A stretch of 64,000 nt of DNA from Nodosilinea sp. (GTDB taxonomy: Bacteria; Cyanobacteriota; Cyanobacteriia; Phormidesmidales; Phormidesmidaceae): positions 1,109 to 65,108 of the forward strand of contig DATIVG010000128.1 in NCBI GenBank assembly GCA_035466075.1, written 5' to 3'. Positions 24,521-27,788 of this stretch are shown one piece after another; the first letter of the stretch is position 1; every line of letters starts with the position of its first letter. The position numbers and the translations under genes are program-made. The notes beneath the pieces were generated by a model, which saw nothing but the letters and a program-made list of their open reading frames with translations, made no database searches and was not told where the DNA came from.

Positions 24521-24654
24521 AGGGCAAGTCTTCCGTAATCTGTCTGCTGCCCATTGTAGCGAGAGATTGATAAAGGCTTTGCCCCACCGCCCCAGACTCG
24601 CCCAAAGACTCCCCCCCAGAGCGATTTTCAACCAATATTTAGCTGGCCCCCGGT

Positions 24655-24939
24655 ATGACCTCCCCCCCTGAGCTGCAGCCCTACCTCGACCCCGAAGGCC
24701 GACTCAAGGCCTGGCCCTCGAAGCGCAATCGGGGCCGGTTTCAGCAGCTGGCCCTGGAATATTTGGCCGGTCAGTTTGCGCCGGGCAGGCGCTACACCGA
24801 GCGCGAGGTCAATGCCCTGCTCAACCAGCTCCACACCTTTGGCGACCCCGCTCTGCTGCGCCGGGAACTCTTTGAGCGCCGCCTGGTCGATCGTCTGCCC
24901 AATGGCTCTGCCTACTGGCGTTTAGAGGCTCGCGGGTGA
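24655..24939 (+). CDS. DUF2087-domain protein
   Basis: LKAWPSKR...YTEREVN.LL...HTFGDPALLRRELFE. Confidence 0.88.
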   Translation: MTSPPELQPYLDPEGRLKAWPSKRNRGRFQQLALEYLAGQFAPGRRYTEREVNALLNQLHTFGDPALLRRELFERRLVDRLPNGSAYWRLEARG

Positions 24940-24959
24940 CCGATGCAAAGAACCTTTGC

Positions 24960-24983
24960 GGCGGGGTGCGATCGCACCCCGCC
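24960..24983. repeat. HIP1-centred 24-bp perfect palindrome
   Basis: ggcggggtgcga|tcgcaccccgcc. Shares an 18-bp core with 57569..57600. Confidence 0.8.
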
Positions 24984-25106
24984 CCTGGGCACCTTAGGCC
25001 TGCGTATGCATCTGTGAAGATTCTCCTAATCTGAGCCGCCCCAGGCCGATCTGCGGGCGGCTTTTTCACGCCGGGGCGCGGCGGCCCATCCTCGGGTAGG
25101 AAGGCG

Positions 25107-25436
25107 CTAGACCCTGGGGGCATACATCATCACCAGCACCCCCAACAGCACAATCCAGCCCCCCAGCAGGTCAAAGCGATCGGGCTGCACCTGGTCAACC
25201 AGCCAGCCCCACGCGATCGACAGCACAATAAAAACGCCGCCATAGGCCGCATAGGCGCGGCCAAAATGGGTGGGTTGCAGGGTCGGCACCGCTCCGTAAA
25301 CGCCCAAGATGACCACGCCGAGCACCGCTAGCCACAGGCTTTTGCCCTCCCGCAGCGCCAGCCACACCAAATATCCCCCGCCAATTTCGCATAGACCAGC
25401 GACCACAAAAAATAGCAGCGATGACAGCACATGCAT
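25107..25436 (-). CDS. ynfA: YnfA-family (SMR-like) membrane protein
   Basis: [31 protein letters not shown]. Confidence 0.93.
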
Positions 25437-25448
25437 GGCTCAAACCAG

Positions 25449-26102
25449 TTACAGAGGGTGGTCTTGACCATCGGCGTGCCGGGCGAGGGCATCGCCCGCG
25501 GGCAGCCCCAGCTGCCGCCGCACGGTGTCTAGCGGCAGTTCCCACTGGTCTTCAAACCGCTGGCCCAGCAAAAACCCGGCCTGCTGCCCCAGGGCCAGGC
25601 CCCGGCGGCGGCTGGCGGCAATGGCCCGCCTCTGGGCCGGGGCCAGCAGAGGGTACAGGGCGCTGGCCAGCCCGAGCGCCAGCCGTTGGGAGCGGCTGTA
25701 GCCCTGGGCCACGGCAAAGGCCAGCACCCCCATTTCGCCCGCGTAGCTGGTGTCAAACCCCAGCAGCACGTGAAAAATATCGTGGGTGATGGCGTAGCGC
25801 AGGGCAAACACATTGCGCCGCGCCACCGCCTCCAGCTCGGGGCTGACGCTAAAGGGGCTGAGATGGTTGGTTTGCATGTGGTGGGCGTACTCATAGCCAA
25901 AGCTGCCCTCCGGCAGCTGGCTGAGCGCCTCCAGATCGATGGGCGGGTAGTAGCCGACCACGGGCTCCAGCTGGGCCCGCACCGCCGGGTCGGCCTGGGC
26001 CCCCAGGGCATCGGCCTTGAGAATGGCAAAATCCCCCAGCCTGGTCGCCTCCTGGCTGCGCACCGTCCGCATGGCCTGGATCAACTGCCTGGGTTTAAGC
26101 AT
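25449..26102 (-). CDS. Coq4-family protein
   Basis: LSQLPEGSFG.EY and the Zn-binding HDIFH-x11-E motif. Start ATG 26102 overlaps the P450 stop. Confidence 0.85.
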   Translation of the reverse strand: MLKPRQLIQAMRTVRSQEATRLGDFAILKADALGAQADPAVRAQLEPVVGYYPPIDLEALSQLPEGSFGYEYAHHMQTNHLSPFSVSPELEAVARRNVFALRYAITHDIFHVLLGFDTSYAGEMGVLAFAVAQGYSRSQRLALGLASALYPLLAPAQRRAIAASRRRGLALGQQAGFLLGQRFEDQWELPLDTVRRQLGLPAGDALARHADGQDHPL

Positions 26103-27423
26103 GGCCGCGGGGTTCAAAGACAACCTTCAGGCCCGATCGCGGTCTCAGGGTGGGAATCGGCATCATCTCGAGGTTTTGGTGGGGCACCAGCCTCCAGGTG
26201 TAGTGGCGCAGCAGGTGGGCCGCCACCAGCTTGATTTCGAGCTGGGCAAAGGCCAGCCCCAGGCAAATGCGGGGGCCACCGCCAAAGCCCACCAGGCTAA
26301 AGTCGGCGCGCTTGTGCTCCGCCCGCTGGGGGCCAAAGCGATCGGGGTCAAAACGATCGGGGTCGGTGTAAAGGGTGCGATCGCGGTGGGCCGCATCGAT
26401 GCGGTACAGCGCCATCCAGCCCTCGGGCACCCGGTAGCCGTTAAATTCAAAGGCTTTCACCACGCCGCGAAAGCCGCCCGCCACCGGCGGATACAGCCGC
26501 TCCACCTCCTTCACAATCTGGTCGAGGTAGGGCATTTGCCGCAGCTGCTCCAGGCCCAGCGGGGTAGCGTCACCCAGCTCGGCCTGCTCCTGCCGGGCCC
26601 GCGCCCAGACCTCGGGGTGCTGGGCCAGCGCCATCACCAGCGAGGTCAGCATCGAGGTGGTGGTTTCATGGCCAGCAAACAGCATCAGCAGCGCCTGCAC
26701 CTTAATTTCGTTGAGGCTGAGGCGGTTGCCCTCCTCGTCCTCGCTCTGCACCAGCAGGCCCAGGGCGTCCTGGCTGGGGTGGGCCTGGCGCGCTTTGACC
26801 ACCTGCTCAATGTGGTGCAGCAGCTGGTCGCGGGCTCGTAGGGCCTTGCCAAAGGGCGTCCAGCCCCAGCGCAGGGGCGGCGCAAACAGCCCGGCGGTCA
26901 GCTCTGTAAACCACTGCGACAGCTGCACCGTCTCGGGGCCGGGGGCGCTGCCCAGCAGCAGGGTGCTGGCAATTTCAAAGGTGAGCTGCTTCATCTCGTC
27001 GAACCAGGTGAACTGGCCCAGGGCAGCCCAGCGCTGGGTGTAGCGCTCGGTGAGCGCCTGCATGGTGTCCACATAGCCCACCAGGGCCGGGCCGTGGAAG
27101 GCGGGCATCAGCAGCTTGCGGTTGCGGCGGTGTTCTTCCCCCTCCTGCAAAAACAACGACTCGCCCAGCAGCTCACCAAAGGTGCCGGGCCAGCCGTCCC
27201 GCCACGAAAAGCAGTCCATGTGGCTGGAGAGCACAAACCGGTTGGCCTCATGGCCCATCATCACCACGGTGGGGCGACCCAGCAGACGGGTTTTGAAGAT
27301 CGGCCCGTACCTGGCCTGGCGCTTTTTGGCAAACTCGCGGTCAAACAAAAAATTGAGGGTTTCACCCACCACAGGCAGGCCAAAACTGCCGGGGGGAAGC
27401 GGAGGTTGGGAAGCAGGAGCCAT
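26095..27423 (-). CDS. Cytochrome P450 (CYP120-like)
   Basis: PPGSFGLPVVGE, I-helix AGHETT, K-helix EVER, PDRF, heme motif FGGGPRICLG. Start ATG 27423. Confidence 0.96.
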   Translation of the reverse strand: MAPASQPPLPPGSFGLPVVGETLNFLFDREFAKKRQARYGPIFKTRLLGRPTVVMMGHEANRFVLSSHMDCFSWRDGWPGTFGELLGESLFLQEGEEHRRNRKLLMPAFHGPALVGYVDTMQALTERYTQRWAALGQFTWFDEMKQLTFEIASTLLLGSAPGPETVQLSQWFTELTAGLFAPPLRWGWTPFGKALRARDQLLHHIEQVVKARQAHPSQDALGLLVQSEDEEGNRLSLNEIKVQALLMLFAGHETTTSMLTSLVMALAQHPEVWARARQEQAELGDATPLGLEQLRQMPYLDQIVKEVERLYPPVAGGFRGVVKAFEFNGYRVPEGWMALYRIDAAHRDRTLYTDPDRFDPDRFGPQRAEHKRADFSLVGFGGGPRICLGLAFAQLEIKLVAAHLLRHYTWRLVPHQNLEMMPIPTLRPRSGLKVVFEPRGHA

Positions 27424-27502
27424 GGGTGGCAAGCGTTAAGGGCAGAGCGATCAAGGCAACACGATCGGGGCAGAAGGCGATCAGCGCCGGGGCGGGCCGC
27501 CG

Positions 27503-27577
27503 TTCTGCTCTCTAGGGTATCGCTCTCTGGCCGATTGCTCCCTAGCCGATTGCTCTCTAGCCAGTCACTCTCTGGCC
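27503..27577. repeat. Degenerate 15-bp tandem repeat x5 (gattgctctctagcc-like)
   Basis: RCTCYCTR cores recur at 27507, 27522, 27537, 27552 and 27567, in the gap upstream of the P450. Confidence 0.75.
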
Positions 27578-27584
27578 CGTCGCC

Positions 27585-27788
27585 CTAGGCCGCGATATGA
27601 TGACCAGCCGCCACAATCAGCTCCTTAAAGGTTTCTTCGGAGGCTTTCGAGCTAATCACCACCGTTTTGGTCTGGGAATGCACATCCACACCGGCATCGG
27701 GTTCGGCCACCGCAATGAGGTCCTTGAGGTCTTGCTCCGCCTGCGGATCGGCCAGGGTAGGCACTTGAAATTGCCAGGGCATAATCAT
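27585..27788 (-). CDS. Heavy-metal-associated (CopZ/Atx1-like) domain protein lacking CXXC
   Basis: FQVPTL...VDVHSQTKTVVISS...IVAAGH matches the pattern of cyanobacterial Atx1. ADPQA replaces ACxxC. Confidence 0.7.
   Translation of the reverse strand: MIMPWQFQVPTLADPQAEQDLKDLIAVAEPDAGVDVHSQTKTVVISSKASEETFKELIVAAGHHIAA

Follow-up and report, generated by a model that had tools for sequence, protein, structure and literature searches.

The cytochrome P450 gene analysed here, from a Nodosilinea genome, shows, judging from the junction of the two reading frames, translational coupling with the gene that follows it, a member of a cyanobacterial Coq4 subfamily; ynfA comes next. Across the cyanobacteria, members of the same subfamily have neighbouring P450 genes that belong to three unrelated families, which suggests an enzyme partnership, undescribed so far: literature searches on Coq4 together with P450s or with cyanobacteria yielded no description of a P450-Coq4 pairing. 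This recurrent partnership is probably functional and directed at a lipophilic substrate. YnfA, in turn, is associated with the P450 of this genus and not with the Coq4 subfamily at large, and an obligate module of three genes is ruled out by the differing phyletic patterns of the genes and by the existence of three locus states within Nodosilinea.

The locus and its gene junctions

The window (i.e., the whole stretch of DNA that was analysed, 64,000 nucleotides) contains the following features:

27585..27788, minus strand: ORF67, a conserved 67-aa open reading frame upstream of the P450 gene, without family match
26095..27423, minus strand: cytochrome P450 gene, probably of the CYP120 family, 442 aa (PF00067, E=1.8e-72; match to 2VE3)
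25449..26102, minus strand: Coq4-family gene, 217 aa (PF05019, 59.3 bits; HDxxH-x11-E motif)
25107..25436, minus strand: gene of a YnfA/UPF0060 (SMR-like) small membrane protein, 109 aa (PF02694, NF002586)

The assignment of the last three to the P450, Coq4 and YnfA families, which an earlier reading of the sequence alone had proposed, is borne out by these profile matches, and the tight physical coupling that it had described also holds. The eight nucleotides ATGCTTAA belong to both the P450 and the Coq4 genes and carry the ATG of the latter (26102-26100) and the TAA of the former (26097-26095). The Coq4 stop occupies 25451-25449 and the ynfA ATG begins at 25436, the 13th base after that stop, leaving a spacer of 12 nt. 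The ATG at 26102 is taken as the correct Coq4 start because the orthologues align from Met1. Location on one strand, the overlap and the short spacer are features of an operon, and from the sequence we infer that P450, Coq4 and ynfA would be co-transcribed. A promoter and terminator scan was uninformative, with four terminator-like sites against 4.2 expected by chance.

The neighbours of Coq4 in the window are the P450 gene, ynfA and genes for DUF2087, AzlCD, a desaturase and an NDH-2-like protein. This is not a quinone-biosynthesis context, and homologues of UbiD and of UbiA/PlqA are encoded on other contigs of the same genome. As for ORF67, Pfam and NCBIfam profile searches gave no match, and its homologues (54-72% identity) lie upstream of the P450 gene in most of the Nodosilinea loci examined.

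The three proteins

The closest solved relative of the P450 is CYP120A1 (2VE3; E=1e-116 over residues 6-435), which scores 394 bits in a dense alignment, far ahead of the next solved structure (183). The window's P450 is a probable member of the CYP120 family, a rank for which the nomenclature asks for 40% identity or more with a member already named. As expected for the P450 fold, FGGGPRICLG provides the haem-thiolate motif, and AGHETT the acid-alcohol pair of the I-helix. Twenty further genomes of the genus encode orthologues of 83-86% identity, which brings the P450-bearing ones to 21 of 53, the window's own included. The genome encodes five P450s, the cyanobacterial mean being about three per genome (PMC7014017). 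CYP120A1 acts on carboxylated or carbonyl isoprenoids and hydroxylates retinoic acid and apocarotenoids (PMC7014017); this hydroxylation is established for CYP120A1 only and is, by analogy, a candidate activity of the Nodosilinea P450.

The Coq4-like protein matches PF05019 well above the cut-off (22.9 bits) with E=4.2e-16. The intact metal motif noted in the sequence-only reading can be read residue by residue as H107-D108-x-x-H111-x11-E123, and neither these four ligands nor the block around them (T106-E123) vary among 40 sequences of the subfamily. An AlphaFold2 model (pLDDT 91.4) predicts the all-helical Coq4 fold of 6E12 and 3MSQ, which Foldseek retrieved at E=3e-9 to 7e-9 and TM 0.62-0.68, with nothing else below E=0.4. 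These two entries are the cyanobacterial Coq4 structures of Alr8543 and of an Npun protein, respectively; 6E12 holds Mg and an oleic acid lodged in a lipid tunnel. The window's protein belongs to a distinct cyanobacterial subfamily (56-81% identity), whose orthologues occupy at least 149 loci in the species collection and are present in 9 of the 53 Nodosilinea genomes.

YnfA is recognised at the level of an equivalog, with 146.3 bits against NF002586 (cut-off 114), besides 152 bits and E=6.5e-45 against PF02694. YnfA of Shigella and E. coli is an SMR-family efflux transporter for which efflux has been reported (PMC9295541).

Locus states within Nodosilinea

The comparison within the genus covered 53 Nodosilinea genomes, the window's own included among the 21 that carry the P450 gene. 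In 20 of these 21, ynfA adjoins the P450 gene, with or without Coq4; Coq4 lies between both in 7, and 14 have no Coq4 gene. In the 13 Coq4-less, ynfA-bearing P450 loci that were fetched, the order is ORF67-P450-YnfA, with ynfA directly after the P450 gene. Two further genomes (L037 and L038) have, at the same syntenic locus, Coq4 without P450 or YnfA; in L037 the order is ORF67-Coq4-NikL-like-desaturase, ORF67 directly preceding Coq4. The genus thus displays three states, namely P450-Coq4-YnfA, P450-YnfA and Coq4 alone, and the single three-gene module of the earlier reading gives way to a stable P450-YnfA pair. From these gene orders, Coq4 in Nodosilinea is best read as an insertion that only some genomes have, made into a P450-YnfA pair that was there before it, and YnfA would then probably stand on the P450 side. 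No remnants of a deleted Coq4 are visible in the P450-ynfA spacers of the Coq4-less genomes, where the P450 3' ends diverge. The 8-nt overlap is kept in all eight P450-Coq4 loci of the Nodosilinea group (the window, L031-L036 and L118). One of them, L035, is that of Nodosilinea nodulosa PCC 7104, where P450, Coq4 and ynfA succeed one another as in the window.

Pairing of P450 and Coq4 across cyanobacteria

Among the subfamily loci compared, YnfA is found beside Coq4 in Nodosilinea only, which places the export step that had been proposed as part of the unit outside the conserved P450-Coq4 pairing. Outside the genus, neither Coq4 nor YnfA was found at any of 29 loci of CYP120 orthologues. The pairing of P450 and Coq4, by contrast with export, does extend to other genomes; its conservation had been set beforehand as the test that could overturn the proposal, and it recurs there with three P450 families. 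A same-strand P450 gene lies beside the Coq4 subfamily in 33 of 80 loci, although many of the family-B cases come from one order, Nostocales, and share synteny, so that the number of independent events is far below 33. P450 is the commonest neighbour and almost always the next gene on the same strand. The linked P450s fall into three families with a mutual identity of at most 32%, occur in both gene orders and distribute as follows:

Family A: CYP120-like; Nodosilinea
Family B: Nostocales, Allocoleopsis, Waterburya, L084 and L050
Family C: L040, L048 and L060

On the Coq4 tree, the adjacency requires at least 9-12 changes over several lineages. Other Coq4 paralogues, taken as a control, had a P450 gene at none of 22 loci, and chance adjacency is ruled out by this difference and by the involvement of three families. 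The remaining 47 of the 80 loci have no adjacent P450 gene. In five complete genomes without the adjacency, the nearest family-B P450 is 51-56% identical in four and 63% in the fifth, and by these values they are probably paralogues. Atypical P450 chemistry is rejected as well, since all the Coq4-linked P450s retain the canonical I-helix motif AGH(E/D)TT and most of them match the haem-Cys pattern.

A weak search for a P450-Coq4 fusion ("Rosetta stone") protein found none; its sole longer match was a Coq4 joined to HlyD-like domains. A link with the merosterol ("deviated ubiquinone") cluster of Scytonema PCC 10023 found no support: upstream of Coq4, this strain encodes another Coq4-like protein and a TnmJ-like methyltransferase instead of a terpene cyclase, and the nearby UbiA scores as a housekeeping 4-hydroxybenzoate prenyltransferase.

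What would the pair do?

The explanation that we propose, with roughly even confidence, is a unit of accessory metabolism made of two enzymes, the P450 and the Coq4-type protein, which would act on one and the same lipophilic substrate through a COQ4-like decarboxylation or a related step. The P450 would add oxygen to that substrate. The Coq4-type protein would be a metalloenzyme whose metal site is binuclear and whose tunnel accommodates a long aliphatic or isoprenoid chain. Its substrate would be a carboxylated lipid (prenyl, apocarotenoid or aryl), and the reaction an oxidative, O2-dependent decarboxylation like that of COQ4, or another metal-dependent step related to it. YnfA would probably serve the P450, whose product or substrate it might, for instance, export. 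For P450 and Coq4, we infer the shared substrate, the type of reaction and the order of the steps; the succession of oxidation, decarboxylation and export of the earlier reading, and the class of substrate that it named, are likewise putative. The unit would be accessory and lie outside the core of plastoquinone synthesis, since the genome encodes homologues of UbiA and UbiD elsewhere and the standard route thus has no need of it. More tentatively, the whole subfamily may be a dedicated partner of soluble bacterial P450s, and both enzymes together would decarboxylate long-chain or prenylated acids oxidatively or convert them in a step that forms a hydroquinone.

Could the arrangement reflect nothing but the history of the locus? 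In Nodosilinea, P450 and YnfA would then be the functional pair, and Coq4 an independent accessory gene with its own substrate in a variable spot. The union of P450 and YnfA in 20 of 21 P450-bearing genomes, with Coq4 in 7, the solitary Coq4 at the same locus in L037 and L038, and the 47 of 80 subfamily loci without P450 all speak for it. We nevertheless regard it as rather unlikely, since it leaves unexplained why three unrelated P450 families, in both orders and several lineages, adjoin this subfamily when the other paralogues do so at 0 of 22 loci, and since the start/stop overlap of 8 nt is conserved in eight loci. The same variety of partners could also be expected if the Coq4-like protein were not catalytic at all, but a lipid-binding helper that passes a hydrophobic substrate extracted from the membrane to soluble P450s of any family; the lipid tunnel with bound oleic acid in 6E12, the long-standing view of COQ4 as a scaffold and the mere reduction in yield after the darK knock-out agree with such a role. 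Against it, the invariance of the four metal ligands and of block T106-E123 in 40 sequences points to catalysis, and the metal-site mutant D164A of human COQ4 loses its function yet keeps its interactions (bioRxiv 10.1101/2023.11.13.566839), so that we consider a helper decidedly improbable.

A different alternative brings the subfamily back to quinones: in the synthesis of plastoquinone or another prenylquinol, it would accomplish the C1 oxidative decarboxylation in one step, as an alternative to UbiD/UbiX plus a flavin hydroxylase, and the P450s would be incidental or would hydroxylate the side chain. In eukaryotes, the C1 oxidative decarboxylation of prenyl-4-hydroxybenzoate, an O2-dependent step, requires COQ4 and is carried out by it (bioRxiv 10.1101/2023.11.13.566839), and a study of plastoquinone synthesis from 2025 suggests that cyanobacteria lacking PlqD/X/H use an as yet unrecognised oxidative decarboxylase (PMC12998194). 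At 16 loci of Nostocales, moreover, a 4-hydroxybenzoate prenyltransferase (TIGR01474, 316.9 bits, above the cut-off) is encoded at a distance of two to four genes from the Coq4-subfamily gene, and an extra copy of ndhK is also near. This proximity to UbiA is, however, seen in Nostocales only and may have been inherited as synteny, and a subfamily as patchy as this one (9 of 53 Nodosilinea genomes) is ill-suited to an essential cofactor step. With UbiD and UbiA homologues in the window's genome, replacement of the standard plastoquinone decarboxylase by Coq4 is unlikely here, and we judge the alternative as a whole to be quite unlikely.

Implications

COQ4 is a human disease gene, and the O2-dependent reaction proposed for its product, a C1 oxidative decarboxylation, still awaits reconstitution in vitro: no activity and no working assay exist even for the human or other eukaryotic proteins, and the physiological metal and cofactor are still to be identified (bioRxiv 10.1101/2023.11.13.566839). 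A compact bacterial pair, made of an apparently soluble and conserved Coq4-type protein and ordinary P450s, offers a route to the substrate and chemistry of COQ4. If the subfamily were indeed a dedicated P450 partner, the two enzymes would represent a previously unrecognised module and would make the COQ4 mechanism tractable in vitro for the first time. The Nodosilinea strains in which this locus holds P450, Coq4 and YnfA, the P450-YnfA pair or a solitary Coq4 constitute a natural experiment. The pairing also bears on the role of Coq4 paralogues in cyanobacteria, which make no ubiquinone, and on the oxidative decarboxylase suggested for plastoquinone synthesis in some of them (PMC12998194).

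Comparison with known systems

The Nodosilinea P450 resembles CYP120A1 of Synechocystis PCC 6803 in its haem and I-helix motifs and in an alignment of nearly full length, but the end of its gene overlaps a Coq4 gene, a neighbour that, like YnfA, is absent from the CYP120 loci of other cyanobacteria (0 of 29). Its YnfA equals that of Shigella and E. coli in length and is an equivalog match (NF002586); the difference lies in the context, since the Nodosilinea gene is tied to the P450, not to Coq4, and in this genus only. The Coq4-like protein shares the PF05019 family and the HDxxH-x11-E motif with eukaryotic COQ4, 6E12 and 3MSQ; at about 25-35% identity to the latter two, it forms a separate subfamily. 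In contrast to eukaryotic COQ4, it is found in a genus that makes no ubiquinone, and its gene is patchy there and linked to P450 instead of quinone genes. The nearest functional parallels are a plant shikonin network, in which a COQ4-like paralogue is co-expressed with a 4-hydroxybenzoate geranyltransferase and CYP76B101, and the darumycin cluster, with its Coq4 paralogue darK. Like the loci studied here, both associate a Coq4 paralogue with P450s outside ubiquinone synthesis, on prenylated substrates; the evidence in them consists of co-expression or of a knock-out that lowers the yield, in a plant or in another bacterium, and the likeness to the cyanobacterial subfamily would be one of analogy.

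The three genes and their surroundings

Region 24600-27700, read and translated on the minus strand, contains three consecutive genes, which are preceded by a small conserved ORF:

27585-27788, minus strand: ORF67 (67 aa), conserved, without family match
26095-27423, minus strand: cytochrome P450, 442 aa (PF00067, E=1.8e-72)
25449-26102, minus strand: Coq4-family protein, 217 aa (PF05019, 59.3 bits against a cut-off of 22.9)
25107-25436, minus strand: YnfA/UPF0060 protein, 109 aa (NF002586, above the equivalog cut-off)

The P450, Coq4-like and YnfA proteins each belong to a known family and are unexceptional within it. The top solved relative of the P450 is, by a wide margin, Synechocystis CYP120A1 (2VE3; E=1e-116, 394 bits, runner-up 183 bits), and its haem (FGGGPRICLG) and I-helix (AGHETT) motifs are present. 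The Coq4-like protein carries the metal motif as H107-D108-x-x-H111-x11-E123, and its predicted structure (AlphaFold2, pLDDT 91.4) matches only the cyanobacterial Coq4 structures 6E12 and 3MSQ (TM 0.62-0.68). The P450 TAA and the Coq4 ATG lie in an 8-nt overlap (common string ATGCTTAA), and 12 nt separate the Coq4 stop from the ynfA ATG. The re-read sequence, its translation and the profile matches agree with the coordinates and motifs of the sequence-only reading.

Next downstream of the trio come a DUF2087 gene (opposite strand) and two genes whose products are, respectively, NikL-like or carboxypeptidase-regulatory-like and of the fatty-acid-desaturase family; the upstream side holds, beyond ORF67, azlD and azlC, then genes for a pyridine-nucleotide-disulphide oxidoreductase and a sulfotransferase. 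None of these flanking genes in the window is a quinone-synthesis gene, and homologues of UbiD and 4-hydroxybenzoate prenyltransferase are encoded on other contigs of the genome. The genome has five P450 genes and two more, distant Coq4 paralogues in unrelated contexts (L127:1922-2584 and L128:3953-4486, contigs C361 and C386), one flanked by genes for a universal stress protein and a divergent PadR regulator, and a shorter one adjoining a metallo-beta-lactamase-fold gene; no P450 is found near either. The C-terminal half of ORF67 resembles, by eye, a metal-binding HMA fold minus its cysteines.

Three states of the locus in Nodosilinea

Each of the three proteins was searched against 53 Nodosilinea genomes, where the CYP120 orthologue (83-86% identity) occurs in 21, YnfA (86-92%) in 22 and the Coq4 orthologue (73-80%) in 9. 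All but one of the 21 P450 genomes also carry ynfA, which adjoins the P450 in every case examined. The Coq4 gene is present in only seven of the 21, always in the order P450-Coq4-ynfA and always overlapping the P450 stop. For genomes that lack Coq4, 13 P450 loci were fetched, and these read ORF67-P450-YnfA with a short spacer. Two genomes have Coq4 with neither P450 nor YnfA, and one of them has a syntenic locus, ORF67-Coq4-NikL-like-desaturase (L037). The same locus thus exists in three states: P450 and YnfA are inherited together in Nodosilinea, with Coq4 as an optional gene between them. YnfA goes with the P450 in this genus and stands outside the conserved P450-Coq4 unit. Around the closest CYP120 orthologues outside Nodosilinea (60-72% identity), Coq4 or YnfA was found within 1.5 kb at none of 29 loci.

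In most of the Nodosilinea loci examined, ORF67 (54-73% identity) precedes the P450; where the P450 is absent, its immediate downstream neighbour is Coq4. In genome G076, ynfA beside the P450 is probably a frameshifted pseudogene, matching in two pieces in different frames (C32:125186-125489); in genome G068 the P450 is present and ynfA wholly absent. At three loci without Coq4 (L111, L113, L126) the P450 C-terminus is longer and divergent (…VVFKKR…) from the Coq4-start overlap point (window 26060-26150), so the indel reshaped the P450 3' end.

The Coq4 subfamily and its P450 neighbours

The cyanobacterial subfamily to which this Coq4-like protein belongs is well conserved (56-81% identity, block T106-E123 nearly invariant) in Nostocales, Coleofasciculaceae, Pseudanabaenaceae, relatives of Laspinema/Oscillatoria and others, and is only 29-41% identical to other cyanobacterial Coq4 paralogues. 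Eighty loci from different species were fetched and all their ORFs clustered. A P450 is the most frequent neighbour (33 of 80 loci), nearly always adjacent and on the same strand, so the proposed pairing does recur in other genomes; at 22 control loci of other Coq4 paralogues there is none. The linked P450s form three families with a mutual identity of at most 32%. Family A (CYP120-like, Nodosilinea) lies upstream of Coq4, overlapping it; family B (19 Nostocales loci plus Allocoleopsis, Waterburya, L084 and L040) lies mostly downstream after a short spacer, and upstream in L050; family C lies downstream in L040 and L060, and upstream in L048 with a MAPEG gene between. Given an average of about three P450s per cyanobacterial genome (PMC7014017), and up to about ten in Nostocales, the probability of an immediate P450 neighbour by chance would be well under 1%. 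On the Coq4 protein tree, P450 adjacency needs at least 9-12 changes. Because many family-B cases have a common Nostocales synteny, independent events are far fewer than 33, yet at least five different arrangements, drawn from three P450 families, remain.

The conserved Nostocales surroundings (e.g., the 12.6-kb loci L057, L069, L080 and L101) include, upstream of Coq4-P450, an extra ndhK/nuoB copy (2-3 per genome), a GNAT gene and a small gene of the VOC/glyoxalase family, to which some loci add a TnmJ-like methyltransferase gene. Downstream, the opposite strand carries a LOG-like gene (TIGR00725), an uncharacterised gene of 196 aa, the gene for 4-hydroxybenzoate prenyltransferase (TIGR01474, above cut-off) and ppx. 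These flanks persist in some Nostocales that have no P450. Six Scytonema, Nostoc or Mojavia loci (among them L051:4965-5969, L057:5024-5971 and L065:4528-5499) encode, upstream of Coq4, either directly or with the small VOC gene intervening, a protein of 315-350 aa that matches nothing in Pfam. It has an HDxxH-x11-E motif of its own (FHDFGHILSGYDTDPQGE), and hhalign aligns it to the Coq4 profile (93% probability, E=3e-7), which indicates two close Coq4-type genes, followed by a P450, at these loci. L040:1-7672 (Cyanobacteriota MAG099) may be a small terpenoid cluster: an ndhH fragment, Coq4, a family-C P450 and a 135-aa ORF are followed by a family-B P450 (other strand) and a 409-aa squalene-hopene-cyclase-like protein. 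L048:1156-6621 (Coleofasciculaceae MAG) holds on one strand a GST, a 96-aa ORF, an NdhK-like gene, a family-C P450 (24 nt further), a MAPEG-family membrane protein and Coq4, where GST, MAPEG and P450 suggest lipid or oxylipin-type detoxification.

A proposed optional partnership and its possible chemistry

An adjacent P450 is absent from 47 of the 80 loci. In five complete genomes without a linked P450, the closest family-B P450 shares 51-63% identity and looks paralogous. Function of the Coq4 protein is evidently possible in the absence of a linked P450. A weak search found no P450-Coq4 fusion protein. Together with the three Nodosilinea states, this argues against an obligate complex and fits an optional tailoring partnership. 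The gene order and tight junctions of the module initially proposed stand for the window; the three genes do not form one obligate module. An alternative, unlikely though serious, is that nothing but locus history lies behind the arrangements and that P450 and YnfA alone are a functional pair.

Eukaryotic COQ4, for which there is no in vitro assay yet, is required for the O2-dependent exchange of the C1 carboxyl for a hydroxyl on prenyl-4-hydroxybenzoate, and its HDxxH-x11-E site binds two metal ions (bioRxiv 10.1101/2023.11.13.566839). CYP120A1 hydroxylates retinoic acid and apocarotenoids (PMC7014017), and enterobacterial YnfA is an SMR-type efflux protein (PMC9295541). In an optional partnership, the P450 and the Coq4-type enzyme are proposed to share one lipophilic substrate, carboxylated or aromatic and isoprenoid-like; in either order, one enzyme would add oxygen and the other would carry out an oxidative decarboxylation like that of COQ4, or a related step that depends on metal. 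A non-catalytic helper presenting a lipid is disfavoured, since the metal ligands are invariant. It is improbable that the subfamily supplies a plastoquinone bypass enzyme: an unidentified oxidative decarboxylase has been postulated in some cyanobacteria (PMC12998194) and the Nostocales gene lies 2-4 genes from that for 4-hydroxybenzoate prenyltransferase, but the subfamily is patchy and the genome studied here has UbiD and UbiA homologues.

No description of a recurrent linkage between one Coq4 subfamily and P450 genes was found in the literature. These loci are valuable mainly as a tractable system for learning the function of Coq4-type enzymes, one that comes with natural presence/absence variants. 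The nearest precedents are shikonin-producing plants, which co-express a COQ4-like paralogue with prenyltransferase and P450 genes, and darK, a remote COQ4-like gene of a bacterial sesterterpene cluster.
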